A stretch of 64,000 bases of DNA, taken from positions 1-64,000 of the forward strand of contig JBAXAI010000020.1 in NCBI GenBank assembly GCA_037142615.1, in the 5' to 3' direction. Made by a program: the position numbers and the translations under genes. The notes beneath the pieces were generated by a model, which was not told the DNA's origin, made no database searches, and worked only from the letters and a program-made list of their open reading frames with translations. Below are positions 2,242-17,709 of the stretch, one piece after another (position 1 is the first letter of the stretch; each line of letters begins with the position of its first letter). Origin of the DNA: Spirochaetales bacterium (GTDB lineage Bacteria; Spirochaetota; Spirochaetia; JABEVK01).

Positions 2242-2717
2242 GTTGTCGGCGTCGCCTCGAGCTCGGCTAAGTCGGCCAGCAACGTCTCCACCTCGTCTTC
2301 GGTGCTGGTCTTGAGGGCTTCGCGGGCCAGACGAACCTGGTCGAGAACCGCTTCGGGACGACCCTGAAGCCTGTAGGCTCGAGCCAGCGCCTCGCGGGCG
2401 TAGGCCCGGTAAAAGCCATCGACGGCCGGACTGCCGAGGGATCCGGGGTCAGCGGCGGCAGCCAGCGAACGCAATGCCCAGGCCTCGGCCAAGCGGGCCT
2501 CGCCCGCCAGCACGTGGGCACGGCTCACCTGCCAGGAGCCGATCGATTCGTGGGTGAGGGTATGGTCTGGGACTTCGAGCCACGCCGCGAACGAGGCGTT
2601 GGCGCGGGCCAGCATATCGAGCGTTTCGGTGGGAGTGCGATCGGGCTTGTCCATCAGGGCCCAGGCCGCGTTGTACCAAGCGGCAGCCTGGCTTTTCATC
2701 GGGTGTTTTTCGCTCAT
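2238..2717 (-). CDS. Conserved hypothetical helical protein
   Basis: ATG at 2717 chosen; stop overlaps next gene (GTGA); [29 protein letters not shown]. Confidence 0.7.
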
Positions 2718-2748
2718 GGTTCTGCTATTGTGGGGCTGGAGAGTCCCC

Positions 2749-3900
2749 TTGTCCATCTTTGTCCGTTTCATGGTGCTCAACTTCCTCGTCAACTGCGCCA
2801 ACGGCTCGACGTCGTTGCTGCCACCGTACCTGGTGTCGCTCGGCGCAAGCCAGACCTTTGTCGGTGTCTACAACGTGCTCAGCGTGCTCATGATCGTCCT
2901 GACGGTGGTGGTGTTCGGCAAGCAATTGGTGCGACTGCCCCGGGTGGGAGCCTTGCGCTGGGGCTATGTGGTGACCGCCGGCGCGTACTTGCTTTCGTGG
3001 TATTTCAGCGGTTCGTTGCCCTTGTTGGTGGTATTTCGGGTGATTGGCGCCGTTTCGCAGGTGTTTTCATCGACCATCATGATCGCGGCGGTGTTCGAGT
3101 CGACGCCTCCGGGTCAACGGGCGGGACGCTTGGCCCTGTTCAGCGTGGCAGGCATGCTGACCAACCCGATGACCTCGCTTTTGGGAGAGACCCTGTTGGC
3201 GAACTTCGGCGGGCCCTCGCTGTTCCTTCTCGGCGCGGGGTTTGTGCTGGCCGCCTTTGTCTGGTCTTTTCTGCTGCGGGAACTCCCTCCGCTGGAGAGG
3301 GCCGAAACTCCCTCGGTGTTCCAGGTGTACCGCCGGCCCGAACTAAGGTCGCTGTTTGTGCTGACAGCCCTGTTTGGAATCTACTATTCCGCGCTGCTGA
3401 CCTTTCTGCCCCACCACACCATGGCGACGCTCGGTCAGGCCAACTTGAGCGCCTTTCTGGTGCCGTTTTCGATCGTAGCCGTTTTGATGCGGGTGTTTGT
3501 CGGCAAGCAATTCGACCGACACCCTCCCAGGCGGTTTTTGCACCTGTCGTTTTTTGCCATCTTCGTGGCCATGCTCTGCCTGCTGTTGCCCTCGTGGTGG
3601 GCCCTCGTGGTGGCGGGAACGCTGTACGGGCTCGGCCACTCGGTGCTGTACCCGATGCTCAACAGCCAGGTGGTGCAAACCGGAGGCGAGGACCACAAGG
3701 CGGCCTACAGCAACGCGTTCACGGTGGTGAACCTGACTTCCGCCGTAACCATGACGCCGTTGCTGGGCCTCTTGGGCGACTTCTGGGGCTTCGGTGCCAT
3801 CGTCACGGTGCTGGCGGTGGTGGCGCTGGCGGGGTTCTTCGTTTCGCGGCGGAGTTTTCCCAAGCCAGCATCAGGTCGACCATACGGCCATAACTCTTGA
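2749..3900 (+). CDS. MFS transporter
   Basis: About 12 hydrophobic segments, GKQFDRHPPR loop; TTG start after GGAG inferred. Confidence 0.85.
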   Translation: MSIFVRFMVLNFLVNCANGSTSLLPPYLVSLGASQTFVGVYNVLSVLMIVLTVVVFGKQLVRLPRVGALRWGYVVTAGAYLLSWYFSGSLPLLVVFRVIGAVSQVFSSTIMIAAVFESTPPGQRAGRLALFSVAGMLTNPMTSLLGETLLANFGGPSLFLLGAGFVLAAFVWSFLLRELPPLERAETPSVFQVYRRPELRSLFVLTALFGIYYSALLTFLPHHTMATLGQANLSAFLVPFSIVAVLMRVFVGKQFDRHPPRRFLHLSFFAIFVAMLCLLLPSWWALVVAGTLYGLGHSVLYPMLNSQVVQTGGEDHKAAYSNAFTVVNLTSAVTMTPLLGLLGDFWGFGAIVTVLAVVALAGFFVSRRSFPKPASGRPYGHNS

Positions 3901-4828
3901 CGCCGTCGGACTGACCTTGGCTTTTGAGGTAGGTGTCGTTCACGGCCTGCGAAACACGCTGCACAGGCCCTTGGTAGCGTTGCCAGTAGGCCTGCAGCGC
4001 GTTCCAGTCGTCTTTCACTGGCTCGGACAGGGTGGCGGAAACGCGCTTCCAGGCGTCGGCCCCTTGCGGACCCTGAGCCACGAGGGCCCCGGCGACGTGG
4101 GGGAGTGCTCCCATGGCCGCCGAATAGTTGGCACCAGGCTCACCACGCGCCATCAAAGTCTTCCAAGCCAAGAAATTAGCTTCATCTTCGCGGGCCCAGC
4201 CCAACTGGTGCTGAGCCTCGTGGGCCGCCGTAAACACCAGCGAAAACACCGGGGGGCCCACATTGACCAAGGGCTCGGCGGTCCAGGGAAGGTAGATGCC
4301 CGCGATCCCCAGCCACGACAGCGCCTCGGAGTACAACGCCGGTTTGGCGGCCGGGATGAGCGCTTTCCACGAAGCGGGAACGGCGGGGCGGCTGGTGTTG
4401 GCGGTGGCTACCAAGCCCGAAGCGAGAGATTCCAGCTCGGCCAGACTCCCACCGGTCACCTCGAGCCCGGCGCTGACCGCCCAGGGTTGCCGCTGGTAGT
4501 TCAGGCCCCAGCCAAACACAAACCACGCCAACACCAGCGACAAGATCGTCAGGTCGTACAACCAGGCGCGGGGGGTGACGAACCACAGGCCGATCAGCAG
4601 CAGAATCAGGAGCGGCAAGGCGAACTCGGCCAACGCCAGCGGCATCCAGCCCGTGACGCGCGCCCACAGGGGGTTGAGAGCGGCAAACAACCCACGGCTG
4701 TACCACGCCTCGACCAGCGCCGAGTTCAGGGAAGCCAGCCAAAACAACGCTAGGGCCAGCGGGCCGGCCGCCAGTGCCGCGAACAGCCAAGGCGACACGG
4801 CCCTAGGCCCGCGGGGTGAGGACGTCAC
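3803..4828 (-). CDS. DUF3810-family membrane protein (HExxH)
   Basis: VEAWYSRG, WGLNYQR, GIYLPWTAEP, AHEAQHQLGWAREDEANF, YLKSQGQSDGVKSY. Confidence 0.85.
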   Translation of the reverse strand: MTSSPRGPRAVSPWLFAALAAGPLALALFWLASLNSALVEAWYSRGLFAALNPLWARVTGWMPLALAEFALPLLILLLIGLWFVTPRAWLYDLTILSLVLAWFVFGWGLNYQRQPWAVSAGLEVTGGSLAELESLASGLVATANTSRPAVPASWKALIPAAKPALYSEALSWLGIAGIYLPWTAEPLVNVGPPVFSLVFTAAHEAQHQLGWAREDEANFLAWKTLMARGEPGANYSAAMGALPHVAGALVAQGPQGADAWKRVSATLSEPVKDDWNALQAYWQRYQGPVQRVSQAVNDTYLKSQGQSDGVKSYGRMVDLMLAWENSAAKRRTPPAPPPPAP

Positions 4829-5516
4829 AACTGCCGTCGGCCCGCCCTAGGTAGGCCTTTTGCGCGCGGCCGCCAAAAAGTCCGACTTCGATCACGCCGG
4901 TCAGAGTCTGGATGCGGGCTTCCATCGCCGAGCAGTCCACAGGCTGGGCAAACGTGAGGTCGAGGATGAGGTTGCCGTTGTCGGTGACCACCGGGCCGGC
5001 TTTGCCCTTGCCGTAGCGCAGCACCACCTTGGCACCGAGGGCCTCAAGCCGCCGGGTCAGGGGCACACGCGCCAGCGCGGCGATTTCGACGGGAATCGGG
5101 AACTTGGTGCCCAAGTGGGCCACGGCCTTCGACTCGTCGGCGATGATCACGAAACTTTTGCTCGCGTCGCACACGATCTTCTCTTGCAACTGTGCCGCGC
5201 CGCCACCCTTGATGCAGTCCAGGTTGGGCGAAAACTCGTCGGCCCCGTCGAGGTACAGGTCAAGCTGGCCGTTCACCTCGGGGCTCGCGAGACTGCGAAC
5301 CTGCAGCCCTTCGTTCTGGCATTGGATTTCGGTGTCAAAACTGGTGGAAACGACCACCAGCCCGGGCAGTTTGCCCTCCCGGTACAATTCGCCCGTCTTG
5401 GCAATAGCCCAATAGGCTGTGCTGCCTGTACCCAAACCCAGCTTCATGCCGGGTTTGACCAGGTCGACCACGGCTTGTTCGCCGGCGGCCTTCTTTCCGC
5501 GATCTTGTGCTTCCAT
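4803..5516 (-). CDS. rpiA: Ribose-5-phosphate isomerase A
   Basis: GLGTGST, DGADE, IKGGGAA..EKIV, VVTDNGNLILD. Confidence 0.97.
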   Translation of the reverse strand: MEAQDRGKKAAGEQAVVDLVKPGMKLGLGTGSTAYWAIAKTGELYREGKLPGLVVVSTSFDTEIQCQNEGLQVRSLASPEVNGQLDLYLDGADEFSPNLDCIKGGGAAQLQEKIVCDASKSFVIIADESKAVAHLGTKFPIPVEIAALARVPLTRRLEALGAKVVLRYGKGKAGPVVTDNGNLILDLTFAQPVDCSAMEARIQTLTGVIEVGLFGGRAQKAYLGRADGSCDVLTPRA

Positions 5517-5988: not shown

Positions 5989-6381
5989 ATGAACCAAATC
6001 GAACTGAAGGCGAGTTTCGCGATCCCGGCAGAAAAACTGTACAAGGCCTGGCTGAGCCCGGTCCACCATGGGGCGATGAGCTACGGCGGTGACGCCCACA
6101 TCGACGGCGTGGTGGGCGGCCATTTCGACTGTGGCGACGGCTACGTGTGGGGCCAGACTCTCGAGCTCGATCCCGGCAAGCGGATCGTGCAAAGCTGGCG
6201 TACCACCGACTTCGCCGAAGAGCAGCCCGACACCACCCTCGAAATCCTGTTTGAAGAAACCGACACAGGCTGTACCATGACCCTCGTCCACAACGGCTTT
6301 CCCGACGATCAGGTGGCGGACTACCTGCATGGCTGGAACGAGTTCTACCTCGTTCCCATGAAAGTCTACTTTGGCGGATAG
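5989..6381 (+). CDS. SRPBCC/AHA1-like domain protein
   Basis: LYKAWLS, LELDPGKRIVQSWRT, GWNEFY. Confidence 0.9.
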   Translation: MNQIELKASFAIPAEKLYKAWLSPVHHGAMSYGGDAHIDGVVGGHFDCGDGYVWGQTLELDPGKRIVQSWRTTDFAEEQPDTTLEILFEETDTGCTMTLVHNGFPDDQVADYLHGWNEFYLVPMKVYFGG

Positions 6382-7054
6382 CTCGCGGAATCTCGCGGGG
6401 TTCAGTGTCTTGGTGTGCGCCCTGATGTTGTTGGGGTCGGCGCCTGTTTTGGCGGCGCAGGATACTTTGGCGGCGCAGGACGCGCCCGTGGATTACTTGG
6501 CCGGTGTAGCCCCGGCAAAAGACCCTGCCTTTCTGGGAATCGCTGTTTCGCGGGAATCGCACAGCTGGGGTGGTTATGTTTCCGGAGGTCTGCTGGCTGC
6601 GGCAAGTGTCGCCGGGCTGGTGCGCTACCTCGACATGGAAAGCCGGGCCCATGCCTTCCGCACCCGCGGGCAAGAAGACTTTTTGCCGGCCAATGTTCCC
6701 GTTTTGCGGCAGGCCTGGGCCGATGGGCAATGGCTTCGGTGGACGCACATCGGTTTGCTGGCTGCCGGCGAAACGGTCTACCTGTACAACACCGCAACCG
6801 GAGTGAGCATGCTGTCGACCGAGACCGACGACACCAGCCAGTCGCGCCTGCACCGGTATTTGTTTTTTGGCCACTTGGGACTCATGGCGGCCGAAATCGG
6901 CGTGGGCTTTTGGGAAACCTATGCCCTCGAGCAGGGCCAGCACGAACTAGTCACCGGCTTGGGCGCCGCGCATTTGGCCCTTGGTCTTGCCATCCCGGCG
7001 CTCATCCTGGGGTCAGGGTTGGTGATCGACTTTTTTCCCGCGCTGGGGTGGTGA
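6371..7054 (+). CDS. Hypothetical membrane protein with His-containing TM helices
   Basis: Signal-like N-terminus, several TM segments; short tandem duplication LAAQDT-LAAQDA. Confidence 0.7.
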   Translation: MADSSRNLAGFSVLVCALMLLGSAPVLAAQDTLAAQDAPVDYLAGVAPAKDPAFLGIAVSRESHSWGGYVSGGLLAAASVAGLVRYLDMESRAHAFRTRGQEDFLPANVPVLRQAWADGQWLRWTHIGLLAAGETVYLYNTATGVSMLSTETDDTSQSRLHRYLFFGHLGLMAAEIGVGFWETYALEQGQHELVTGLGAAHLALGLAIPALILGSGLVIDFFPALGW

Positions 7055-7081
7055 GGCGCGGGTGACACCCAAAATTTCGAT

Positions 7082-7103
7082 GGCAAAAGTGCGTTCTGCT
7101 TCA
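7082..7103 (-). repeat. Island leader repeat, truncated terminal copy A
   Basis: ggcaaaagtgcgttctgcttca, identical to 7640-7661. Confidence 0.85.
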
Positions 7104-7114
7104 ACCAACGCGCG

Positions 7115-7312
7115 TTATTCGGCAGCCATTCGCGGCAGCTCGCGCGCGAGGATGGCCTCGAGAACTTCGTCGGCGTCTTTACCGGCTTTCTCGGCAAAAG
7201 ACCGTAACGCCAATTCTGTTGCCGGCTGGAGGTAGTGAGGGAGGATCATGTCTTCTTCTTTGATGGTGAACTTACCCTGCACAGCGCCGGTAAAGTCGTA
7301 ACTCTTTTTCAA
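7115..7312 (-). CDS. BrnA/CopG-like antitoxin
   Basis: MKKSYDFTGAVQGKF N-terminus; TTG start overlaps the brnT stop. Confidence 0.8.
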   Translation of the reverse strand: MKKSYDFTGAVQGKFTIKEEDMILPHYLQPATELALRSFAEKAGKDADEVLEAILARELPRMAAE

Positions 7313-7611
7313 AACAAACTCCTCTGCTCGTACGCGAGCGTTTCCGCCAAACTGGCCTTGCGTGCCGAGATGATTCGCAGCACGGTTTCGTCGACCGCAT
7401 GAACACGCTCGACGTGGACGACAAAGAGCAGGCGGCTGGCCTTCGAAACGCCGAGCGAAAGCCAGCGGTCTTCGGTACTCGAGTTCTCGCTATCATATTT
7501 CGACAGCATAAAAGGATCAAGGAACACGCTCGCTGCCTCGATGAACGAGATCCCGTGTTTCTCGAGATTAAGTCGGGCCTTCCGGGCATCCCACGCAAAC
7601 TGGTTCGGCAT
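7309..7611 (-). CDS. BrnT-family toxin
   Basis: FAWDARKARLNLEKHGISF, EDRWLSLG, LRIISARKA. Confidence 0.93.
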   Translation of the reverse strand: MPNQFAWDARKARLNLEKHGISFIEAASVFLDPFMLSKYDSENSSTEDRWLSLGVSKASRLLFVVHVERVHAVDETVLRIISARKASLAETLAYEQRSLF

Positions 7612-7630
7612 ACTTCATCACTTCCACCTC

Positions 7631-7678
7631 ACCAGACGGGGCAAAAGTGCGTTCTGCTTCACGCTTTGCGAAAAAATC
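7631..7678 (-). repeat. Island leader repeat copy B (upstream of brnT)
   Basis: 36/40 identical to copy C and 36/48 ungapped to copy E (manual count). Confidence 0.85.
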
Positions 7679-7763
7679 ATCCGTTCGAGATTGCTTCACG
7701 CGTGTCGGCGGGATGATAGTGCTTACCAACCACGGCGTTCTTGAAGTTATAGTGTCGCTTCAT
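7677..7763 (-). pseudogene. Truncated BrnA-like antitoxin
   Basis: MKRHYNFKNAVVGKHY matches the start of the 7115-7312 protein, but stops after 28 aa. Confidence 0.65.
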
Positions 7764-7969
7764 AAAAGCTCCTGTTCTGCAAATATACCACCGTTCCGGA
7801 GCATACCGAGCGAGACTTCCCTGTCCTCCAATTCGGAGTGAACCGTATCGGGTACCGACATGACAAACCGGTCGCCAAAAATGTTTGTAGCGTCCTCGAA
7901 TCGGACCCCGTGTTTTCGCCAATTGCTGGCTTTCTTGGCTTCATCCCACTCAAACTGAACTTTACCCAA
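7760..7969 (-). pseudogene. BrnT toxin with internal deletion
   Basis: FEWDEAKKASNWRKHGVRFEDA..EDREVSLG present; the VVH..RIISAR segment is missing. Confidence 0.8.
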
Positions 7970-7984
7970 ATCTGGCCTCGGTGT

Positions 7985-8024
7985 ACCAGACAGGCAAGAA
8001 GTGCGTTCTGCTTCACGCTTTGCG
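7985..8024 (-). repeat. Island leader repeat copy C (contains the stop codon of the MmeI-like gene)
   Basis: accagacaggcaagaagtgcgttctgcttcacgctttgcg. Confidence 0.85.
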
Positions 8025-10916
8025 CGTTTTTCTGCCGCTCGCCAACAACCCCGCCGTGTACTGCTCGTACAACCCGAACAGAAACTCCACCCGCTCCAGT
8101 TCGCTGGCAAACGGCGCGGCGCGGTAGCACTTGTCCACCGCCTTGTCGAGGGCTTGGTGCGCCTTCACCAGCTCGGGCGGCATGGTCAGCGGGTCGTACA
8201 AGTCGGCCAAACTGCTGGCCGGGTACAGCGCCCGGGCATCGAGCACCCCCTGGGCGGCCTTTTCCACAGCCAGGACTTTGGGGTCTGGAGGGGAAAGCCT
8301 TCCCCTGGCTTCAGCCGCTGGCGCGTCTTCCGCCACCCCTTCGCCGGGGACACCCCGGAACCCCGGCTCAACGACTTCGTCGTTGAGCCCTGGAGTTTTG
8401 CCTTTGGCAAAACTCCCCGTTCCGTCGTAGTGACCGGGAGTACACGCCGGCCAGGGGAAGTTGTTGTAGACGATGGAGTTGGAATATCGATAGCGCCCCT
8501 CGAGGCGGCCACACACCTGGCGCATCCACGCCATGTGTTGGGTGCTTTGCAGCACGCCAAAGTGGAACAAGGTGGCGTTGGGGACGAGCTGAACCAGATC
8601 GCTGCAAACAACGTCGGGGGTCATGAACCCGATTGGAAGGAAAGGTCGACGTTCGGAACTGACCTTGGGAACAACCAGGTAGGTCGAGGTGGGAAAGTTC
8701 TCAACGTGGAACCGGGTAGGTGTCGTGGCAAGCTTTTGTGTCGGTGAACTTTTGCTGGCCAACCGTGAGTTCCTAACGGCATCAACGCGTTTGAGCGACT
8801 CCGGCATGGCGCGGAGCACTTGAGGAGCACAGTCGCCCAGCCACAGCACCCAGCGGTGCCACCCGTTGAGAAATTCATCGCTCCCCAGCCACATCTTGAA
8901 GTACGGCTCAGCCTGCGGTTCCTTGGCCAAGAAATCCGCTTTTTCATCATCCGAAAACAGGTAATTGCCGCCGTCAATTGGCTTGTTTCCAATGCCCATC
9001 GATGGCACTTCACAAAGCGGTGTCGAGCGATTGCCAATCAGCACATTCCGCGAGTCGATCAAGTACGGGTTGATGTTCTTGGCCGGGCGCTCCACCGCTT
9101 GGCCACGAATGTCGGGGTAGTCGAAAATCCGTTTGGTCGGGCGCTCACCCAGTCCAAACCCGACGATGACGCAGTACACCGCAGCGTTGCCCTTGGCTTC
9201 GTTGCTCCACTTGAACGTGCGGTGAGCAAAGTGAATCACCACGCCACGGCCCAGCAGATAGCTCCACAGGATTCCCACTTGTTCGCCCTGTGAAATGGAA
9301 TTGGTCGACACAAAGGCACAGCCAATTTTGGTTCCCTGAAGGTAGTCGGCGGCCTTGACGTACCACGTGGCCACAAAGTCGAGAGTGCCCGAGTTGGCCA
9401 CGTGACCCATGGCAAATTCCACGTCGGTGCGCTGAGCTTCGTTCTGCATCTTGCTGCCTACAAACGGCGGATTCCCCAGAAGGTAGCTCAGCTCGCTCGG
9501 GTCCACCACGTCGGCCCAGTCCAGGCGCAGGGCGTTGCCGTGCACGATCTTGGGGCTGGCGGTGAGCGGCATGCGCGGTAGGTATTCGCCAAACTCCTCG
9601 CCCAGCCGCACGTTCATCAAATGGTCCATAATCCAGAGCGCCACCCGGGCAATTTGCGCCGGGAACTCTTCGATCTCGATGCCGTACAGGTTGTTCACGT
9701 CGATGCCGTGGTAAAAGCCCAGGTCGGCGTATTTGTGCTTGGTCAGCTTTTGGATGGCTTTGTGAGCCTCGATTTCGAGCAGGCGCAGCTCGCGGTAGGC
9801 CAGAATCAAAAAGTTGCCGCAGCCGCAGGCCGGATCGAGCAGCTTGATCCTGCGGATCTTGGCCAACAAGGCGTTCAGCCCAGTCTCGCTCGAGCGGCTG
9901 TGTTCCAGCTCGGCCAGCAGGTCGTCCAAAAACAACGGGTGGATGGTCTTGAGGATGTTCTTTTCGCTGGTGTAATGGGCACCCAGGTGGCGGCGGGCCC
10001 CGGCATCCATCACGCTCTGGAAAAGGCTGCCAAAAATGGCGGGGCTCACCTTGGCCCAGTTGAACCGGCACACGTGCAGCAGCGTGGCGCGCATGGGTCC
10101 GGTAAAGCTGGGAATGGTCAGCGCCTCGTCGAAAAGGCCGCCGTTGACGTACGGAAAAGCCTTCAGGTCGTCGTCGAGGCTCGACTGGCGCCGTTCGGGG
10201 GCGGTGTTGAGCACCTGAAAGATCTGCGCCAGGTGCATGCCCAGGTCACTGCCGTCGTCGCGGGTTTTGTCTTCCAGGTAGTACATCAGGTGGTCTTTGG
10301 CAAAGATGCCCGTGTCGTCGGCAAACAGGCAGAACATCAGACGCACCAAGAACACTTCCAACTCGTGGCCAGCAAACCCCGAGGCCAGCAGGTCGTCGTG
10401 AATTGCCCCCATCAGCTCGGCAGCGCGGATGTTCACCGGGTCCTCATCGCGATAGGTGCGCTTTTCCCAGCCCAAAATAAACCCGAACAGGTGGATATTT
10501 TCGTGCAGCGCACTTAGGGGGAACTCGGTGGGCGGCGCGCCCTCCCCGGCCTCAAGGTCAACAAGCCGAAAACGGGCAAAGTCGCTCACCACGATGTAGC
10601 GGGGCAATTCCTCGTTGGCGATGCCGCCGGTTGCACAGTAATCGAGCGCTTGTTTCAGGGCCTTGTCGAGGTCGTGGCCCCGGCTTTTGTGTTCCACCAC
10701 CAGCATGCCGGGCCAGAAAAAGTCCACGAACCCGGTGTTGCCGCTCAACGTTTTGGCGCGGGCCTCGAACACCCCCAACCGCTTGGCGGGAATGCCCCAC
10801 ACCTCAAAAAAGTCGCGCCAGAACGTCTGTGCCTGGCTCTTTTCATCGGCGTCGTCGGCGTGCTCGCGGGCAAACTCAAAGGCGCGCTTTTTGATCTCGG
10901 CGAGGGTGAAGGACAT
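8013..10916 (-). CDS. MmeI-like type IIL restriction-modification enzyme (YeeA family)
   Basis: N-terminal D-x9-EHK nuclease motif, LGAHYTSEKNI, LDPACGCGNF, GNPPF, C-terminal YRYS..YNNFPWP and LADLYDPLTMP. Confidence 0.95.
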   Translation of the reverse strand: MSFTLAEIKKRAFEFAREHADDADEKSQAQTFWRDFFEVWGIPAKRLGVFEARAKTLSGNTGFVDFFWPGMLVVEHKSRGHDLDKALKQALDYCATGGIANEELPRYIVVSDFARFRLVDLEAGEGAPPTEFPLSALHENIHLFGFILGWEKRTYRDEDPVNIRAAELMGAIHDDLLASGFAGHELEVFLVRLMFCLFADDTGIFAKDHLMYYLEDKTRDDGSDLGMHLAQIFQVLNTAPERRQSSLDDDLKAFPYVNGGLFDEALTIPSFTGPMRATLLHVCRFNWAKVSPAIFGSLFQSVMDAGARRHLGAHYTSEKNILKTIHPLFLDDLLAELEHSRSSETGLNALLAKIRRIKLLDPACGCGNFLILAYRELRLLEIEAHKAIQKLTKHKYADLGFYHGIDVNNLYGIEIEEFPAQIARVALWIMDHLMNVRLGEEFGEYLPRMPLTASPKIVHGNALRLDWADVVDPSELSYLLGNPPFVGSKMQNEAQRTDVEFAMGHVANSGTLDFVATWYVKAADYLQGTKIGCAFVSTNSISQGEQVGILWSYLLGRGVVIHFAHRTFKWSNEAKGNAAVYCVIVGFGLGERPTKRIFDYPDIRGQAVERPAKNINPYLIDSRNVLIGNRSTPLCEVPSMGIGNKPIDGGNYLFSDDEKADFLAKEPQAEPYFKMWLGSDEFLNGWHRWVLWLGDCAPQVLRAMPESLKRVDAVRNSRLASKSSPTQKLATTPTRFHVENFPTSTYLVVPKVSSERRPFLPIGFMTPDVVCSDLVQLVPNATLFHFGVLQSTQHMAWMRQVCGRLEGRYRYSNSIVYNNFPWPACTPGHYDGTGSFAKGKTPGLNDEVVEPGFRGVPGEGVAEDAPAAEARGRLSPPDPKVLAVEKAAQGVLDARALYPASSLADLYDPLTMPPELVKAHQALDKAVDKCYRAAPFASELERVEFLFGLYEQYTAGLLASGRKTRKA
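8280..8416. repeat. Multi-hairpin palindromic element inserted in frame in the R-M gene
   Basis: Perfect stems at 8289-8306 (7 bp), 8365-8389 (11 bp), 8392-8416 (11 bp), plus ggggacacccc. Confidence 0.8.
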
Positions 10917-11254
10917 TAATTCAGGACCAACTGCGTCTCGTCAGCGAGGGCCTTTTCCACGAACTTGTTCAGCGACAGGCCAAGCTTTGCAGCCGCCAGA
11001 GCCGCTCGCCCGTGTTGCTGCGGGTCAATCCGAACGACAAACTTGCCCGAGTAAGGTTTTTCGGCCGGCCGGTTCTCGGTGCTGCACCACTCGATGTAGT
11101 CGTCCACGGACTCCCTGAAAGCCAGGCGAAGTTCATCAACGGTCGCCCCTTCGAAGGTTATTCCATCTTTGGAAAGATTGACCACCTTACCAAAAAACGT
11201 GCTCGCCTCGTCATCAAACTGCACCAACCCGACGTAGCCTTTGTATTCCATCAT
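10916..11254 (-). CDS. hicB: HicB antitoxin
   Basis: MEYKGYVG, ITFEGATVDEL..F.ESVDDY, KPYSGKFVVRIDP, SLNKFV. Confidence 0.95.
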   Translation of the reverse strand: MMEYKGYVGLVQFDDEASTFFGKVVNLSKDGITFEGATVDELRLAFRESVDDYIEWCSTENRPAEKPYSGKFVVRIDPQQHGRAALAAAKLGLSLNKFVEKALADETQLVLN

Positions 11255-11425
11255 GGTACGAAACCCGCCTTTTCCAACTGCTCGCGCACCGACTCAACGG
11301 CACCCTTGATTGCGCTTCGATCGGGATGAGGTCGGTGGTACACAGACCTAGTCCCATTCAGTGAAACCGGAACGTGTGGGGCGTTCAAAGACCGACTCGA
11401 GAACCTTGCGCTGCTTGCTGTTCAC
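11251..11425 (-). pseudogene. hicA: HicA toxin disrupted by internal deletion and frameshift
   Basis: GTG-NSKQRKVLESVFERPTRS, then in another frame VSLNGTRSVYHRPHPDRSAIKGAVESVREQLEKAGFVP-TGA overlapping the hicB ATG. Confidence 0.85.
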
Positions 11426-11431
11426 GACGAT

Positions 11432-11460
11432 ATGATACTACAAAATGATATCGCAGTCAA
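11432..11460 (-). promoter_or_regulatory. sigma70 promoter of hicAB (leaderless)
   Basis: TTGACT-N17-TATCAT-N6-GTG. Confidence 0.8.
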
Positions 11461-12104
11461 TTCACAATCCCCCACGTCATGCTGACGGTTTCGTCCTGCT
11501 CGATTTCGTCCTCGTCGGGCATTCCATCCATGCTGTCGGCACGGTCGGCAACTCCAGCATCCCAAGGACGCGGATGACTCTTGAACGCCAATTCCGATTC
11601 GCCAAAGTTGATGGACTCGACCTCACCCAGCCGCACACCGGATGCCGAAGCCAGGACGCTGGCCTTGGTGGCGGCATCCACGACGGCGGCACGCAGCAAC
11701 TGTTCCAAGGCGCGTTCTGGATGCTCCAACGTGTAGGTAATGGCTACGGCCAGCTCAGGAAAGCCTTGGCTCGACAGTGTCAGAAGTGCCATCATGTGGT
11801 TCCGGGCTAGGCGCATCGACATGTTGCACTTCGAGGAGGCCCGGAACCCGATGTGGTGGTGCTTCCCGTCATGGTACTCGGTTTCGGCCTGCAAACGGAT
11901 GCTCCCAAGGCGCAGGCTGTCTGCCGGTACCTGACGTTCAGCCAAAGCCGCCTGAAACCGCTGCAGTGAACTCTCCAGCCGCTCAAAGGCCGCCGCCTGC
12001 ACGCGGTCGACAAGGGCAAAGTCCAGCTGAATCTTCATCCAATCGGGCGGAAGTGTGACTTTTCCCAGACCTTGAACGTGAATTGTGCGCGAAGAACTGA
12101 CCAT
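11457..12104 (-). CDS. SIMPL (DUF541) domain protein
   Basis: RTIHVQGLGKV..PD, AVVDAATKASVLASASGVRLGEVESI; ATG after GAGGG. Confidence 0.85.
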   Translation of the reverse strand: MVSSSRTIHVQGLGKVTLPPDWMKIQLDFALVDRVQAAAFERLESSLQRFQAALAERQVPADSLRLGSIRLQAETEYHDGKHHHIGFRASSKCNMSMRLARNHMMALLTLSSQGFPELAVAITYTLEHPERALEQLLRAAVVDAATKASVLASASGVRLGEVESINFGESELAFKSHPRPWDAGVADRADSMDGMPDEDEIEQDETVSMTWGIVN

Positions 12105-12160
12105 GATGGCCCTCCATGGGCCCAGCATAGTCGACGCGAAAGCACCAATGGTGCATCGCC

Positions 12161-12282
12161 AAAAAAAAAGAACGCCCCTCAAGTTGGGAACAAGGCATAC
12201 GTAAGCCGAGTCCGCATGAAGGGCGTCGTCAGGGGTGTTCGGAGCCGTAAGCCCCTAGTCACCTGGCCACCTCGCGGTAGTT
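12161..12282 (-). ncRNA. Candidate structured small RNA or attenuator, copy 1
   Basis: Own promoter, 5' GCGA tetraloop hairpin, GC stem followed by U9; paralogue at 13756-13853. Confidence 0.6.
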
Positions 12283-12288
12283 AGCTAA

Positions 12289-12317
12289 AGTATCGGCCCA
12301 CGGGCCAAGATTGTCAA
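12289..12317 (-). promoter_or_regulatory. sigma70 promoter of candidate sRNA copy 1
   Basis: TTGACA-N17-GATACT with palindrome GGCCC-gt-GGGCC in the spacer; the -35 overlaps the uma2 stop codon. Confidence 0.7.
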
Positions 12318-12928
12318 TCAGCCTGCCACAGCTGGGCGACATCCAGCGAGAACCCCGCCAACACCGCCGAGGTGACGGTGCCGGTGGACTCAAAGGTAAC
12401 CTCGGGAGCGAAACGGGGGCCCGAGCCTGCCTTGGCCGGTGCCAACACATACTGCTGCAACCAACGCCCCACGGGGTCAATCACCCAGTACTCGCGCACA
12501 CCCGAGCGCTCGTACAGGGCGTACTTTTCGTGCAGGTCTTTGCGGCTGGTTGACGGCGATAGAATTTCGATGACCAGGTCGGGGGCACCCCAGATGCCGT
12601 TGGGTTTGAGCTTGTCAGAGTCGCAGACCACCAGCACATCGGGCTGCACCACGGTGTCGACATCGTCTTCGCGCTGCTCGCGCACCCGAGGAAAAAACAC
12701 ATCCAGCGGTGCCGGGTAAACTCGACAGTCCCCGTCTTTGCCTTCTAGGAAATTGCCAAGCCGACGGGTGAGCAGAGCGCCGATGCCCTGATGAAGCCGC
12801 GTAGGGCTGCTCATGCTGTAGGCCACACCATCGATAAGCTCCCAGCGCTCATCCTCGGGCCATTGGCGGTAGTCGCAGTACGTGTACTTTTGTTCCTCTT
12901 TGCGAACCGGTAGTCCCATTTTCCTCAT
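12314..12928 (-). CDS. Uma2 (DUF820) family PD-(D/E)xK endonuclease, copy 1
   Basis: ELIDG, SP..HQ, VQPDVLVVCD, GAPDLVIEILSPST, K..LYERSGVREYWVIDP. Confidence 0.95.
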   Translation of the reverse strand: MRKMGLPVRKEEQKYTYCDYRQWPEDERWELIDGVAYSMSSPTRLHQGIGALLTRRLGNFLEGKDGDCRVYPAPLDVFFPRVREQREDDVDTVVQPDVLVVCDSDKLKPNGIWGAPDLVIEILSPSTSRKDLHEKYALYERSGVREYWVIDPVGRWLQQYVLAPAKAGSGPRFAPEVTFESTGTVTSAVLAGFSLDVAQLWQAD

Positions 12929-12944
12929 TCCTCCATTCTACCTG

Positions 12945-12992
12945 ACCAGACAAGGGAAAGGGAGGTTTTGCTTGAGGTTGGGGCTAAGAATC
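12945..12992 (-). repeat. Island leader repeat copy D (diverged)
   Basis: accagacaagggaaagggaggttttgcttga..aatc, 17 nt from the uma2 ATG. Confidence 0.65.
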
Positions 12993-13010
12993 TGCAAAGA
13001 GACGTGAGAA

Positions 13011-13622
13011 CTACTCCTGCCACAGCTGGGCGACATCCAGCGAGAACCCCGCCAGCACTGCCGAGGTGACGGTTCCGGTGGACTCAAAGGTAACCTCGGG
13101 AGCGAACCGGGGGCCCAAGCCCGCCTTGGCCGGTGCCAGCACATACTGCTGCAACCAACGCCCCACGGGGTCAATCACCCAGTACTCGCGCACCCCCGAG
13201 CGCTCGTAGAGCGCGTACTTCTCGTGCAGGTCTTTGCGGCTGGTTGAGGGCGACAGGATTTCGACCACCAGATCGGGAGCGCCCCAAATGCCGTTGGGTT
13301 TGAGCTTGTCAGAGTCGCAGACCACCAGCACGTCCGGCTGAACCACGGTGTCGACATCGTCTTCCCTTTGTTCTCGCACCCGAGGAAAGAACACATCCAG
13401 CGGCGCGGCGTAGACCCGGCAATCACCCTTCTTGCCCTCCAAATGCGCAAGTATCCGAGTTGAAATCAACAAGCCAATGCCCTGATGAGACCGCGTCGGG
13501 CTGCTCATGCTGTAGGCCACACCGTCGATCAGTTCCCACCGCTCATCCTCGGGCCATTGGCGATAGTCGCTGTACGTGTACGTTTGTTCTTCTTTGCGCA
13601 CCGGTAGTCCCATTTTCCTCAT
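13011..13622 (-). CDS. Uma2 (DUF820) family endonuclease, copy 2
   Basis: Same motifs; near-identical to copy 1 except one block. Confidence 0.95.
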   Translation of the reverse strand: MRKMGLPVRKEEQTYTYSDYRQWPEDERWELIDGVAYSMSSPTRSHQGIGLLISTRILAHLEGKKGDCRVYAAPLDVFFPRVREQREDDVDTVVQPDVLVVCDSDKLKPNGIWGAPDLVVEILSPSTSRKDLHEKYALYERSGVREYWVIDPVGRWLQQYVLAPAKAGLGPRFAPEVTFESTGTVTSAVLAGFSLDVAQLWQE

Positions 13623-13638
13623 GCCTCCATCTTAATGA

Positions 13639-13686
13639 ACAAGACGGGGGAAGTGGAGGGTTTGCTTCACGGGTTGGGAAAAAATC
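13639..13686 (-). repeat. Island leader repeat copy E
   Basis: 36/48 ungapped identity to copy B. Confidence 0.75.
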
Positions 13687-13755
13687 GGAGTGCAGATGGG
13701 GCACTGTGGGCCACCTTGCGGGACTTCATTGCCGAGACAGGACGGACGCTGAAAT

Positions 13756-13853
13756 AAAAAAAGGACGCCCCTTGAGCGTCCTGAACCGACGTCTGGGGTA
13801 CCCCTGCTCCTAGCGAAACAGGCCCCTAGTCTCATGGCCACCTCGCGGTGGTT
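13756..13853 (-). ncRNA. Candidate structured small RNA or attenuator, copy 2
   Basis: CCACC-GCGA-GGTGG hairpin, GACTAGGGG..ACCCC, terminator AGGACGC..GCGTCCT-U tract. Confidence 0.6.
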
Positions 13854-13859
13854 AACCAA

Positions 13860-13888
13860 AATATCGGCCCACGGACCAAGATTGTCAA
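13860..13888 (-). promoter_or_regulatory. sigma70 promoter of candidate sRNA copy 2
   Basis: TTGACA-N17-GATATT. Confidence 0.7.
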
Positions 13889-13942
13889 ACGAACGAAACC
13901 CAAGGGAGGGTCTTTTGATCTCGACGAGGGGGAAGGACACCG

Positions 13943-14260
13943 TCAAAACCCCACAAACAGCAGATCGAGGGCCGCCACCATTTCATCACGGCGGCTTTTC
14001 AATGAGGCCTGAACCGGCCCCAGAACGGTCATCGGCACCGAGGCCAGCTCGTGCATTACGACGAGGTAGGTGTCCCCGGCGAGGGCGACCGTGGGGTGCA
14101 ACCGCCCAATAGGGAGGACTGTGCAGGTGGCTCGAGTCAGCGGTGCGACGACGCGCGTGGCCAAGGCAGCAACGACGTCGTGCTGGAGTATCAAAAGGTA
14201 TGGGTAGAGCCCGCGTGTGTTGGGGTTCAGGTTGGTACAGATGTCAAACTGGAGGCTCAA
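13943..14260 (-). CDS. ccdB: CcdB-family toxin
   Basis: QFDI..N.N....YPYLLILQHD, TRVVAPL, RL.P, ALDLLFVGF C-terminus. Confidence 0.9.
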   Translation of the reverse strand: MSLQFDICTNLNPNTRGLYPYLLILQHDVVAALATRVVAPLTRATCTVLPIGRLHPTVALAGDTYLVVMHELASVPMTVLGPVQASLKSRRDEMVAALDLLFVGF

Positions 14261-14484
14261 AACGAACGCAACCCGTCAGAAAAGACTCCATGGGCGTCCA
14301 CCTCGCGATTCCACGCTTCGATCGCCGCCTGATTTTCCACTTTCCACGCGCTTTCCGCTCGCCTAGCAAGCTCCAGGCGGATTGCCTGCTCCAAAAGTGT
14401 CGACAGAACCAACTTTTGAAGTCGGGCCGCTTCCAGCAGCTCGGAGTCGAGACTCACATTCGTGCGCAATTTCGTGTTCTTCAT
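14257..14484 (-). CDS. ccdA: CcdA-family antitoxin
   Basis: RTNVSLDSELL..AR, WKVENQAAIEAWN..V..HGVFSDGLRSF. Confidence 0.9.
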   Translation of the reverse strand: MKNTKLRTNVSLDSELLEAARLQKLVLSTLLEQAIRLELARRAESAWKVENQAAIEAWNREVDAHGVFSDGLRSF

Positions 14485-14493
14485 CGTGTGTAA

Positions 14494-14522
14494 AAGGTAG
14501 CACAGGGGCATGGAATCCTCAA
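14494..14522 (-). promoter_or_regulatory. Candidate ccdAB promoter
   Basis: TTGAGG-N17-TACCTT with TGn extension. Confidence 0.5.
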
Positions 14523-14760
14523 GAGCGAAACGGGGGCCCGAGTCTACCTTGGGGGTGCCAATACATACTGCTGCAACCAACGCCCCACGGGGTCGATCAC
14601 CCAGTACTCTCGTACGCCGGAGCGTTCGTAAAGGGCGTACTTCTCGTGCAGGTCTTTGCGGCTGGTTGAGGGCGACAGGATTTCGACCACCAGGTCGGGG
14701 GCACCCCAGATGCCGTTGGGTTTGAGCTTGTCAGCGGGGCGGCGTAGACGTGAAGTTCGC
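14517..14760 (-). pseudogene. Third, decayed Uma2 copy
   Basis: VYAAPL joined out of frame to DKLKPNGIWGAPDLVVEILSPST..QQYVLAP (PD motif deleted), a further frameshift, both ends missing. Confidence 0.9.
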
Positions 14761-14812
14761 CAGGCCGGAACTGTAGGGCTAAGCGCCGAAGGTGCGTGCC
14801 CGCGCTCTGCGC

Positions 14813-16390
14813 CTACTCGTACGCCCCCAACACCTTCAGCAGCCTCTCCCGACCGATAATCTTCAAAAAGCTGGCCAACCGCGGCCCCTGGTCCTTCCCC
14901 ACCAGGGCTTGGTAGGTGACGAGGAACAGCGCCTTGGGATCGACGCCCGACTCTTCGGCCACGGCGTAGATCCGGTTGTTCAGGGCCTTCTCGTCGAGGG
15001 CCTCGAGCTCTGCGTCGATGACGGCTACCAGCTTCTTCAGCGCGAGGGCCTGCGCCGGCTCCAGCGGCCGCGCAGGCGTGCCGTCGGGCTGGATGGCGAA
15101 GCGGAAGTCTTCGGGAGCGAAGTTGGTGATCCAGTTCCAGGTGCACTGCGCTCGGGTGCGCAGGCGGGCCTTTTGGCTGTCCTTCACCCCGTCGAGGGCA
15201 GCAAGGGTGCGCTCGACGTCGCCGGAATAGGTCTGCAGCAGCGTGCCCAGGTGGCGGATGGTCACCTGGTAGGGCATTTCGGCTTCGCACGGCCCCATCT
15301 GGCTGAGTTCGTAGATGCGGCTCTGCTTGGCCTTTTCCTTTTCGTTCACCTCGTGGGCACCATAATAGATGCGTTCACACTTGTCGTAGTCCTCGTATAT
15401 CTTCAGCACGTCGAGGTCGAAGCTGATGGCAAACTCGGCGTTGGGCCGCGTACCGGCGAACAAAAAGCGCGTCACCTCGGGGGTGTAGACCTCGAGCACG
15501 TCGTCGAGGCCAATGACCTCGCCGCTTGACGAGCTGATCTTGCCCCCCCGCCCCTTGATACTGATGAAGTCGTATTGAAAGCTCACCGGGGCCGTGCCGC
15601 CGTAGACTTGAACCGTCAGGCGGGCCGTGTCGAAACTGCCGCCTTCGCTGTGATGGTCCTTGCCGGCGGGCTCAAAGTCGACGCCCTCCTTGACCCAGCG
15701 CATGGGCCAGTCGATGCGCCACGGCAGTTTGGCGCCCTTGGCCGTGCGTAAGTCGATGGTCTCTTTGTTGCCACAGTCGGGGCAGGAGTAGCTCAGGGCC
15801 CAGTCGCCGTCCCAGCCTTCGATCTTGGTGTCGTCGCGGTTGCAGGCGTGGCAAAACACGCTCACCGGCCACCAGTCGGCCTCCAGCGGTTCGGTGCGAT
15901 ACTCGTCGAGCGTTTTACGGATGTCGTCCTTTTTGAGCAAGGCGTGGCGGATGCCCTCGGCGTAATACCCCTTGGTGTAGCGCTCGGCCTGGTAGATGTA
16001 TTCGGGGGTGACGCCTACCAGCGGCAGGAGCTTTTCGAGGTCGAGCTCGTTGCCCCGGGCGTAGTTTTCGCCACGGCCGAGTGTGTCGGGCACCAGCGTG
16101 ATGGGCATGCGCAGGTACTTGGTCAGCAGCTCAGGCTGGGGCATGTTTTTGGGCACTTTGCGGAACACGTCGTAGTCGTCCCAACTGTAGATGAAGCGCA
16201 CTTGCTTGCCCCGGTCGCGGAGGGCCCGCACCACCAGGTCGACCGAAATGATTTCGCGGAAGTTGCCGATGTGGACGGTACCCGACGGTGTGATGCCGCT
16301 GGCGCAGGTGTAGAGGGGTTTGTCGCCCTTTTCGCGGAGGACTTTTTCGGCGTTCAGGTCGGCCCAGTGGCCAGTGTTCAGGCTGCTCAT
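14813..16390 (-). CDS. lysS: Lysyl-tRNA synthetase, class I
   Basis: SGITPSGTVHIGN, DWPMRW, EPAGKDH, KISSS, GPRLA. Confidence 0.97.
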   Translation of the reverse strand: MSSLNTGHWADLNAEKVLREKGDKPLYTCASGITPSGTVHIGNFREIISVDLVVRALRDRGKQVRFIYSWDDYDVFRKVPKNMPQPELLTKYLRMPITLVPDTLGRGENYARGNELDLEKLLPLVGVTPEYIYQAERYTKGYYAEGIRHALLKKDDIRKTLDEYRTEPLEADWWPVSVFCHACNRDDTKIEGWDGDWALSYSCPDCGNKETIDLRTAKGAKLPWRIDWPMRWVKEGVDFEPAGKDHHSEGGSFDTARLTVQVYGGTAPVSFQYDFISIKGRGGKISSSSGEVIGLDDVLEVYTPEVTRFLFAGTRPNAEFAISFDLDVLKIYEDYDKCERIYYGAHEVNEKEKAKQSRIYELSQMGPCEAEMPYQVTIRHLGTLLQTYSGDVERTLAALDGVKDSQKARLRTRAQCTWNWITNFAPEDFRFAIQPDGTPARPLEPAQALALKKLVAVIDAELEALDEKALNNRIYAVAEESGVDPKALFLVTYQALVGKDQGPRLASFLKIIGRERLLKVLGAYE

Positions 16391-16416: not shown

Positions 16417-17709
16417 CTAGAACTGCAACAGCAACTCACCCCGATGCCAAAACGACACCGGACCGTTCTGACTGATCTTGATGCTCAGGCCAAAGAAGCT
16501 GGCGGCGATGCCGGCCTGGCTGCGCCCCCCTCCCTGGCTCTGCAAGAGTGCGGCCCGGCTGATGTCGATAATGTCGCCGCAGCGGAGGATGCGCCCGTCG
16601 CGGCTGATGGTCGTCAGCCCGTCGCTCGACACGATGCCCAGCAGGGAATTGGTGGCGTTGAGTTCGGCGATGTGCTGCTTTTGGATGAGCGCGCGCAAGT
16701 GGTCGCCCACCTCGGTATGGTCAATCTTGCCGATGGCGGTGGGAAGCACGGCCGAGTCCTCGGGAATCAGAATGCTGGCGCCCAAACCTCCCTCGCTCAG
16801 GGCAAAGAAGAGGCTGACCAGCAATTCCTGCAAGTCAGTCGCTAGGCCGAAGCGGGCCAGCAGCGTGAACAGCAGGCTCCGGTCGCGCAGTTGCCAGTGG
16901 TTGCGGCTCCACTTGAGCTGCACTTCGGGGCTGACGATGACAAACACCTCTTCGCGCAGGCCCACAAAGGCCACCCACGGCTGACCGGGCATGCCGGCGA
17001 GCAGGCCCTTGAGGTGCTGGTTGCGCAGCCGGGCCACCAGACTGTACTGGTCGGGATTCTTCAGGCGGACGATTCCATGGAGCTTGAGCTGGGCGTCGAC
17101 CACGTAGTAGCTGTTTCGTCCATCGACGTAGCGGAAGCTGGCCGGGCTGGAAAACAGGTCGTAGTGGAAGTCCACGGGGGTCTCGAAAGGCGAATACAGA
17201 AACCCCGAGGCGGACAAGGCGGCGGTGAAGGCTTCGAGGTCGCTGGTAAAGCAGAACCCGCTGGAGCACCGCTTATCTTCGTAGTACCGGAAGCTGAGGT
17301 CCTGCAGCACGGCCAACAGACCGATACGGAGGCCCTCGGGGTCAGCCTTCTCCGGATCGAGAAAGCGGGCCACCAACAGGTCGCCAAAGCCGATCTTGTT
17401 CGAGAACTTGAGACCAAGACCGAGAAAGGCCTGCGACCCGGCGCTCGAGAGCTCGGCGATGGCGGGCGGAACCAGCCGGAGCAAGTCCATCTCGCGGTCG
17501 GTCAGGCCCATTTCGCGTTCCAGGGAAATGACGAGAGGCTCCTGGTCGGGCCCCGGGCAGAACCAGAGGCGAACGTTCCGCCCTTCGGTCACCTGGAACC
17601 CCGACGAGGTCAGCGGGGGTGCCGCCTCGATTTGCTGTCGTATCCGGGTGTTGGGAATGAGCTGGCCAAGCGAGACGAGCACGCCTTCCACAAGCTGAGC
17701 GGGAGTCAT
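16417..17709 (-). CDS. Protein with C-terminal DisA_N/diadenylate-cyclase-like domain, degenerate motifs
   Basis: GASILI..SSDGLTTI..DG.I..CG.I, GGGRSQAG, IKISQNGPVS. Confidence 0.7.
   Translation of the reverse strand: MTPAQLVEGVLVSLGQLIPNTRIRQQIEAAPPLTSSGFQVTEGRNVRLWFCPGPDQEPLVISLEREMGLTDREMDLLRLVPPAIAELSSAGSQAFLGLGLKFSNKIGFGDLLVARFLDPEKADPEGLRIGLLAVLQDLSFRYYEDKRCSSGFCFTSDLEAFTAALSASGFLYSPFETPVDFHYDLFSSPASFRYVDGRNSYYVVDAQLKLHGIVRLKNPDQYSLVARLRNQHLKGLLAGMPGQPWVAFVGLREEVFVIVSPEVQLKWSRNHWQLRDRSLLFTLLARFGLATDLQELLVSLFFALSEGGLGASILIPEDSAVLPTAIGKIDHTEVGDHLRALIQKQHIAELNATNSLLGIVSSDGLTTISRDGRILRCGDIIDISRAALLQSQGGGRSQAGIAASFFGLSIKISQNGPVSFWHRGELLLQF

Follow-up and report, generated by a model that had tools for sequence, protein, structure and literature searches.

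Two phage-related candidate small RNA units in a toxin-antitoxin and restriction island of a Spirochaetales bacterium

In a 64,000 nucleotide (nt) stretch of the genome of a Spirochaetales bacterium (contig JBAXAI010000020.1, positions 1 to 64,000; hereafter, the window), two related sequence units, here called A and B, bracket a pair of genes for nucleases of the Uma2 family. An earlier note on this DNA had taken the units for an RNA antitoxin or a guide-like partner of these nucleases. The analysis described here leads to another explanation, in which we have moderate confidence, namely, that A and B are phage-derived small RNA units of the antisense type that reside as two orphan paralogues in a toxin-antitoxin (TA) and restriction island. 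The evidence consists of the anatomy of the units, the phage sequences that flank unit B, the presence of the same promoter in a phage context, and the island status of the surrounding segment. From this evidence, we infer that the units would be transcribed, could act as antisense RNAs, and may still have a function.

The homology between the two units was clear-cut. A gapless alignment of the minus strand from 12317 to 12251 with that from 13888 to 13822 contained 60 identities in 67 positions, and the repeat pair was also recovered in a within-genome BLAST search with an E value of 3.6e-19, exactly as the earlier note had described it, including TTGACA as the starting point of the homology. 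A promoter scan, terminator calls, and folding all bore out that each unit contains TTGACA-N17-GATAYT, a hairpin with a GCGA loop, and a terminator (Table 1). The hairpin, P1, has a stem of 5 base pairs (bp) in both RNAs (CYACC-GCGA-GGUGG), and one C/U change opposite a G in P1 is the single A/B difference that preserves pairing, which, with only two homologous sequences, proves nothing. In unit A, the 17 nt promoter spacer includes the 12 bp palindrome GGCCCGTGGGCC, and the −35 element overlaps the TGA stop codon of the Uma2-1 gene. The previously predicted RNA lengths of about 122 and 98 nt hold only under the assumption that transcription starts about 7 nt past the −10 element. The fold of RNA A had a free energy of −48.2 kcal/mol (z-score −3.1), which was reached by none of 200 shuffled sequences, and the fold of RNA B had −42.8 kcal/mol (z-score −2.9), which was reached by two of 200.

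The elements common to A and B are the promoter, the 5′ 37 nt, two short blocks, and the end of the terminator. In the 4.27 Mb genome, AGGGGCGTYCTTTTT was found at the A and B sites only, with 0.01 occurrences expected by chance. ACCCCWGACGWCG was also confined to these two sites, but 1.1 occurrences would be expected, so that this block is informative only via its collinear position. Between P1 and the terminator hairpin, RNA A contains a variable middle part. The middle segments of A and B differ by replacement and not by the point divergence of about 10% that is seen in the flanking repeat and in the Uma2 genes, which argues for module exchange rather than decay. A related hairpin that had been reported for positions 13709–13721 is indeed present as a sequence, but it folds only as an irregular stem of 2 + 3 bp, and its 5′ half belongs to a phage gene fragment.

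The statement of the earlier note that no reading frame is conserved between the copies was correct, and a small-protein reading was ruled out because A and B do not have a common frame. A search of the whole window with the Rfam 15 covariance models did not yield any match at the gathering threshold, in agreement with the previous failure to assign the units to a riboswitch or small RNA family. Even with a cutoff of E ≤ 10 for the region 11000–15000, only two chance-level matches with 15.6 and 13.4 bits were obtained, both outside of the units. ARAGORN did not detect a tRNA or tmRNA between 6000 and 17000. It can thus be maintained that A and B represent a pair of paralogous, structured transcription units that resemble small RNA genes and have no Rfam match.

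The region from 11000 to 15000 contains three sigma-70-like sites with a score of 10/12, compared to 1.1 ± 1.0 in shuffled sequences. To judge from the tRNA and tmRNA genes, a sigma-70-type promoter is believable for stable RNA genes in this organism: 26 of the 48 upstream regions of these genes had scores of at least 9/12, versus 40 of 2,000 random 120-mers, and the predicted promoters mostly had the form TTGACA-N16–18-TAnnnT and ended 9–20 nt before the gene. Altogether, the genome contains 254 promoter-like sites with at least 10/12, and only four of these, including that of unit B, are followed within 40–170 nt by a strict terminator, defined as a hairpin plus a T-run, a definition that does not cover the long terminator of unit A. 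Thus, units that combine such a promoter with a strict terminator are rare in this genome.

A third copy of the promoter was found on contig C38, which is identical to that of A in 30 of 30 positions and to that of B in 47 of 49 positions, if 22 nt upstream are included. This contig carries a complete-looking phage structural module with genes for terminase, portal, Phage_min_cap2 (MuF2), scaffold, major head, adaptor, and tape measure proteins, and neither a Uma2 gene nor a TA gene was seen near the promoter copy. The promoter lies in a 120 nt spacer between the MuF2 and scaffold genes and points against both. It is the sole promoter with a score of 10/12 in those 17 kb and is antisense to the late genes. 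The predicted RNA of about 68 nt would form one long hairpin followed by U7 (−28.3 kcal/mol, z-score −4.8, 0 of 200 shuffles as good). The closest relative in IMG/VR, L028, the MuF2 core of which is 95% identical to that of C38 at the protein level, has TTGACA-N17-TATGTT at the same spot. Its predicted RNA of about 90 nt would fold into three hairpins and a 9 bp terminator (−44.7 kcal/mol, z-score −4.8, again 0 of 200 shuffles as good). The homology between C38 and L028 stops right past the palindrome, and the RNA bodies are unrelated. In all four copies, the break-points of the homology cluster at the promoter and the palindrome. In both phage RNAs, the hairpin plus U-run is terminator-like on the antisense strand only. 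By prediction, each of the four units is equipped on the antisense strand with a promoter and a terminator of its own: for A, B, and L028, the promoter scores 10/12 and the terminator is a hairpin plus U-run, and for C38 it is a long hairpin plus U7. An Rfam search of the phage copies matched only a tRNA. This is a tRNA-Met (CAT) gene in the head module of C38 (L003 668–739, corresponding to C38 ~16872–16943, minus strand), flanked by the scaffold and major head genes and oriented as the late genes are.

Phage sequence also flanks unit B on both sides. Downstream of RNA B, the 3′ part of a MuF2 gene is collinear with the MuF2 genes of C38 and L028, with 19 nt of exact identity and about 37 nt of similarity (13713–13749), and its peptide RDFIAETGR is identical to that of L028. 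The fragment and RNA B converge, and the stop codon of the former is located in an A-run opposite the U-run of the latter. Apparently, the ancestral MuF2 gene of B did not have a C-terminal extension. On the other side, a remnant of the 5′ untranslated region (UTR) and the ribosome-binding site (RBS) of the scaffold gene directly abuts the promoter; its sequence occurs only twice in the genome. The scaffold gene itself is lost, and ccdB is found in its place. The flanks keep the gene order and the orientation of the phage. Because phage sequence is present on both sides of B, the segment 13713–13912 is best described as a relic of about 200 nt of a phage MuF2-scaffold spacer with a third RNA body. 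The units of C38 and L028 are encoded opposite to the phage genes, and the same orientation is indicated for B by its flanks.

The features of the units and of their surroundings are compiled in Table 1.

Table 1. Positions of units A and B and of neighbouring features in the window
Feature	Position	Strand	Basis and remarks
Unit A, promoter to terminator	12317 to 12161	minus	sequence anatomy
Unit A promoter	12289–12317	minus	scan 10/12; TTGACA 12317–12312, 17 nt spacer, GATACT 12294–12289
Predicted RNA A, about 122 nt (start assumed)	12161–12282	minus	folding, terminator call
RNA A, P1 hairpin with GCGA loop	12280–12267	minus	folding
RNA A, long terminator hairpin, then U9	12227–12171; U9 12169–12161	minus	folding and terminator call
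Unit B, promoter to terminator	13888 to 13756	minus	sequence anatomy
Unit B promoter	13860–13888	minus	scan 10/12; TTGACA, 17 nt spacer GGTCCGTGGGCC, GATATT
Predicted RNA B, about 98 nt (start assumed)	13756–13853	minus	folding, terminator call
RNA B, P1 hairpin; P2 containing an inner hairpin	P1 13851–13838	minus	folding
RNA B, terminator	13782 to 13762	minus	terminator call; 9 bp and T-run
MuF2 (Phage_min_cap2) 3′-part fragment, ending in RDFIAETGRTLK and a stop	13713–13757	plus	collinear match to the MuF2 genes of C38 and L028
Scaffold gene 5′ UTR and RBS remnant AAGGGAGG	13889–13912	plus	CCCTCCCTTGGGTTTCGTTCG common to C38 and L028
Uma2-1	12314–12928	minus	PF05685, E 1.7e-33
Uma2-2	13011–13622	minus	PF05685, E 1.2e-32
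Third Uma2 copy, cut at both ends	14523–14734	minus	BLAST, Pfam, repeat search
ccdB	13943–14260	minus	Pfam, E 2.8e-22; ccdAB directly upstream of unit B
ccdA	14257–14478	minus	Pfam, E 1e-22
SIMPL/DUF541 gene	11457–12104	minus	PF04402, E 1.3e-22; 56 nt downstream of the RNA A terminator
MmeI-family restriction-modification gene	8013–10916	minus	Pfam
BrnT-like genes	7309–7611; 7760–8110	minus	Pfam; the match of the second is limited to profile positions 1–50 of 77
Strain-specific TA/restriction island, about 8.4 kb	6385–14810		synteny with G002, G003, and G004, and Pfam

These observations suggest the following model. The unit would consist of a sigma-70 promoter with a palindrome in the spacer, a structured non-coding RNA of 100–120 nt, and an intrinsic terminator, and its native place would be the spacer between the MuF2 and scaffold genes of a phage of this host that resembles siphoviruses. 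In that position, the RNA would have perfect antisense complementarity to the late polycistronic mRNA, both in the spacer and in the final MuF2 codons, and it could pair with the late transcript and dampen or process it. Because nothing that could be regulated is located downstream of the phage unit, a stand-alone small RNA gene is indicated. Because the target is the unit's own opposite strand, which always matches, the RNA body could change freely from phage to phage; such a drift, with retention of promoter and terminator function, would explain the differences between C38, L028, and A/B. In the window, the phage would have been lost; of its flanking sequence, about 40 and 25 nt remain at B and none at A. 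Transcription of the orphan copies probably continues, and in trans they may affect incoming phages whose spacer matches; alternatively, they could be relics or serve as promoter/terminator punctuation for the neighbouring genes.

Two characterized phage RNAs provide precedents for the proposed mode of action. OOP of phage lambda is a short RNA that extends from pO to tO and overlaps the 3′ end of cII; passages of one report (PMC5869508) mention a repressor site in its promoter region and suggest RNase III-dependent and -independent cleavage of the OOP/mRNA hybrid as the mechanism. The units resemble OOP in being short non-coding RNAs with their own promoter of the constitutive type and an intrinsic terminator, the 3′ parts of which overlap the 3′ end of a convergent phage gene, and the repressor site in the OOP promoter region has a possible parallel in the palindrome in the promoter spacer. 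In contrast to OOP, which is located between cII and O in the early region, the units occupy the MuF2-scaffold spacer of a late operon, have no sequence or Rfam relationship with OOP, overlap the coding region by a few codons only, and are known here from sequence. The second precedent is STnc6030, an antisense RNA of the Salmonella prophage BTP1 within the late genes, which, according to the part of PMC7067206 that deals with it, excludes BTP1, but not P22, when expressed alone. The phage units are likewise antisense to an operon of late structural genes, and STnc6030 is a precedent for the action of an orphan copy in trans. However, STnc6030 is given there as about 500–786 nt long and lies inside a coding sequence, whereas the units have about 70–120 nt and lie in a spacer, and phages whose spacer would match A or B are not known. 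With regard to genome organization, phage morons, that is, independent promoter-gene-terminator insertions between phage genes, are also comparable: the unit is self-contained, lies between two late genes, and varies between close phages, but its cargo is a non-coding RNA, and its orientation is opposite to that of the flanking genes.

The phage gene next to the unit adds another comparison. PF06152 is the MuF2 domain of the MuF polymorphic toxin superfamily, and, in the sections of Jamet et al. [quoted passage not shown] Similar to MuF toxin loci, the gene next to the unit carries PF06152 and has variable C-terminal extensions. In L028, MuF2 is an ORF of 900 amino acids (2258–4960, plus strand) with an insert that resembles an intein (Intein_splicing, E 9e-8, below the cutoff) and a weak C-terminal match to CdiA_C (E 6e-4, 20.3 bits, below the Pfam cutoff), and in C38 the extension has a weak match to LPD3. 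L028 thus has the polymorphic-cargo architecture of the MuF type, and a downstream ORF fit for an immunity gene was not seen. Unlike in MuF toxin loci, this position is occupied by a convergent RNA unit, and a plausible ORF is not present.

Outside of this strain, the searches yielded no homologue of the units. A BLAST search with unit B and its flanks did not find the repeat in 40 relatives; the sole match was to 19 nt of the terminator part in G002 (E 0.009), which was taken as chance. The covariance-model search of relatives that the earlier note had proposed was performed with a 67 nt model (R1) that contained P1 only and gave no match in 11 genomes of the order. Scans of viral and genome contigs with the exact pattern retrieved nothing except L028, and scans of metagenome contigs gave two matches, both identical to the window's own sequence (same strain). 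Motif matches on C40, C10, and C20:24306 were in coding-like sequence and were regarded as chance. Neither A nor B had a match in 50,697 phage records (blastn), the scaffold protein had no match in the viral contigs, and a query with the N-terminal part of MuF2 against 400 genomes of the phylum yielded five distant matches with 31–32% identity, too far for a comparison of spacers.

Several of the results weigh against a phage origin with antisense function. The viral, genome, and phage-record searches did not reveal any phage with an A- or B-type spacer, and the trans target of A and B is thus hypothetical. The unit was seen in two phage contigs only, C38 and L028, and the conservation of the promoter between them is, at 95% protein identity, by itself no proof of selection. 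Six more distant phages with 57–67% amino acid identity lack a spacer at this position or have small ORFs on the sense strand there, and thus the unit belongs to a single narrow lineage of phages. Phage sequence does not flank unit A. Furthermore, the blocks that are conserved between A and B (P1, GACUAGGGG, ACCCCWGACGWCG, and AGGGGCGUYC) are unexplained by a pure cis-antisense model, in which drift would be expected. Sequencing runs also did not provide direct support: 20 of 24 runs contain part of the stretch, and among the contigs of four of them that were compared (two DNA, two metatranscriptome), the metatranscriptome contigs (X19 and X20) match 12388–12583 and 13180–13373 at 100%, that is, inside of Uma2-1 and Uma2-2 only. 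Assembled contigs cannot show small RNAs, so that the uncovered units are uninformative either way. Expression of the Uma2 genes is at most weakly hinted at, since carry-over of DNA is possible.

The main rival explanation is that the units are functionless debris, that is, decaying phage scraps in a recombination-prone island, the promoter and terminator features of which were kept merely through recent copying. The state of B, a phage scrap of about 200 nt with broken flanking genes, would fit this explanation, as would the mosaic island with its truncated Uma2 and BrnT-like genes, the failure to find homologues in the relatives, in the order, and in public pattern scans, and the missing RNA cover in the metatranscriptome contigs. 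We nevertheless regard it as unlikely, because in two separate copies exactly the stretch between the −35 element and the U-run is kept, including a promoter of 10/12 and a strong terminator, whereas all other phage sequence was lost, and because the replacement of the middle segments looks like module exchange. Alternatively, the units might be cis-acting, terminator-containing leaders, with B controlling Uma2-2/Uma2-1 and A controlling SIMPL. Indeed, they harbor the sole minus-strand sites with at least 9/12 upstream of these genes in the region 11000–15000, and in both RNAs, if cut before the 3′ arm of the terminator, the 5′ arm is predicted to pair elsewhere, with probabilities of mostly 0.7–0.99. 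However, the competing helices use different partners, the P1 region in A and the GACGUC block in B, and thus there is no conserved antiterminator. In addition, the downstream genes, SIMPL and Uma2, are unrelated, the phage copies run into the antisense strand of MuF2, where there is nothing to regulate, and no Rfam riboswitch or leader was found even at E ≤ 10. A riboswitch or attenuator was rejected on these grounds, which leaves the attenuator alternative raised in the earlier note weak, and a leader function in general appears quite improbable.

The original idea, an antitoxin- or guide-like RNA partner of the adjacent Uma2 PD-(D/E)xK nucleases, was suggested by the arrangement of the genes, with the units bracketing the Uma2 pair, the stop codon of Uma2-1 inside the −35 element of A, and a truncated third Uma2 gene upstream of ccdAB and B, as well as by the conserved frame with variable inserts in both RNAs. 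However, the genome contains 11 matches to PF05685, only three of which are at this locus. BLAST and the covariance model did not find the repeat outside of this locus, so that the eight further Uma2 matches, including a second tandem pair, lack it. The linkage to Uma2 is thus not a property of the RNA, and the recurrent association with uma2/TA loci that the earlier note had put up as a check was not observed, neither in this genome nor, by BLAST, in the 40 relatives. Moreover, the same promoter unit is found in phage head modules without Uma2 genes, phage fragments flank B, one of them separating it from Uma2-2, and the complementarity to neighbouring mRNAs was not above that of shuffled RNAs (RNAduplex, 40 shuffles; z-scores −1.7, −1.5, 0.1, and 1.0, the first two bearing on this explanation). 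Type III TA systems of the ToxI type have a similar layout, in which a promoter, a structured RNA, and a terminator precede a protein gene. However, the units lack the tandem repeats of type III antitoxins (Tandem Repeats Finder, 12100–13950, score of at least 30, 0 rows), the downstream genes encode Uma2 and SIMPL proteins instead of ToxN/AbiQ-type RNases, and the unit also occurs without a downstream gene. A type III antitoxin RNA was therefore rejected, and we consider any partnership with Uma2 highly improbable; the candidate RNA partner of a nuclease now appears to be phage-derived and unlinked to the nuclease family. Extremely unlikely is, finally, that the 67 bp direct repeats are att-like scars left by the site-specific insertion of a Uma2 cassette, or that they serve as substrates through which this cassette is amplified or lost. 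They are 1571 bp apart around two tandem genes, and the clustering of break-points at the promoter and palindrome might be seen in this light, but no integrase or recombinase gene was seen in or next to the segment (ORFs, Pfam), the repeats are 90% identical instead of identical, and no contig in two DNA runs joins them without the Uma2 pair.

Phage-derived antisense-type units therefore remain our preferred explanation of A and B. A more far-reaching version, in which we have very little confidence, would make them a domesticated RNA-only exclusion device: A and B would be expressed constitutively, pair with the late mRNA of incoming phages that have a matching MuF2-scaffold spacer, and trigger its cleavage, and the replaced middles of A and B as well as the unrelated bodies of C38 and L028 would have arisen in an arms race over the spacer. 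In a still bolder variant, the RNA between the MuF2 and scaffold genes would replace the missing protein immunity gene of polymorphic cargo of the MuF type. If the units are transcribed, they represent new, uncatalogued cases of antisense small RNAs carried by phages, at an uncommon location, the MuF2-scaffold spacer, and would indicate that such units can survive as orphans in a chromosomal TA/restriction island. It would then become testable whether bacteria keep phage antisense RNAs as a cheap, sequence-specific protection against related phages.

The island that contains A and B is bordered by a gene for an AHSA1-like protein (5989–6381) and lysS (class I LysRS). Starting from lysS, the genes, all on the minus strand, are the truncated Uma2 gene, ccdA/ccdB, unit B, Uma2-2, Uma2-1, unit A, SIMPL, hicB, the MmeI-family gene, and the two BrnT-like genes (Pfam). 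In all three genomes of the same genus in which the junction is assembled (G002, G003, and G004), lysS directly abuts the AHSA1-like gene and the island is absent; in a fourth genome, the contig ends inside lysS and does not cover the junction. Because the relatives join the two border genes directly, the segment is a strain-specific island. An integrase gene was not seen in it. The DNA sequences of Uma2-1 and Uma2-2 are about 92% identical with a divergent central patch (BLAST, repeat search). The second tandem Uma2 pair of the genome, on contig C25 (47820–49003), has equal Pfam scores. A repeat of about 40 nt with 68–100% identity is present at 7073–7112, 7631–7670, and 7985–8024, shortly upstream of the BrnT-like genes (minus strand), and weaker look-alikes with 63–70% identity are found upstream of both Uma2 genes (12945–12984 and 13639–13678). 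This repeat may be a shared promoter or operator or, for the Uma2 copies, may be due to chance.

The genome-wide scan for promoters also yielded two further units with a promoter score of at least 10/12, a strict terminator, and no obvious ORF, at C38 32235–32325 (plus strand) and C1 398453–398380 (minus strand), which are candidates for small RNAs or leaders. In the former, which belongs to the phage contig, the promoter spacer again includes a palindrome.

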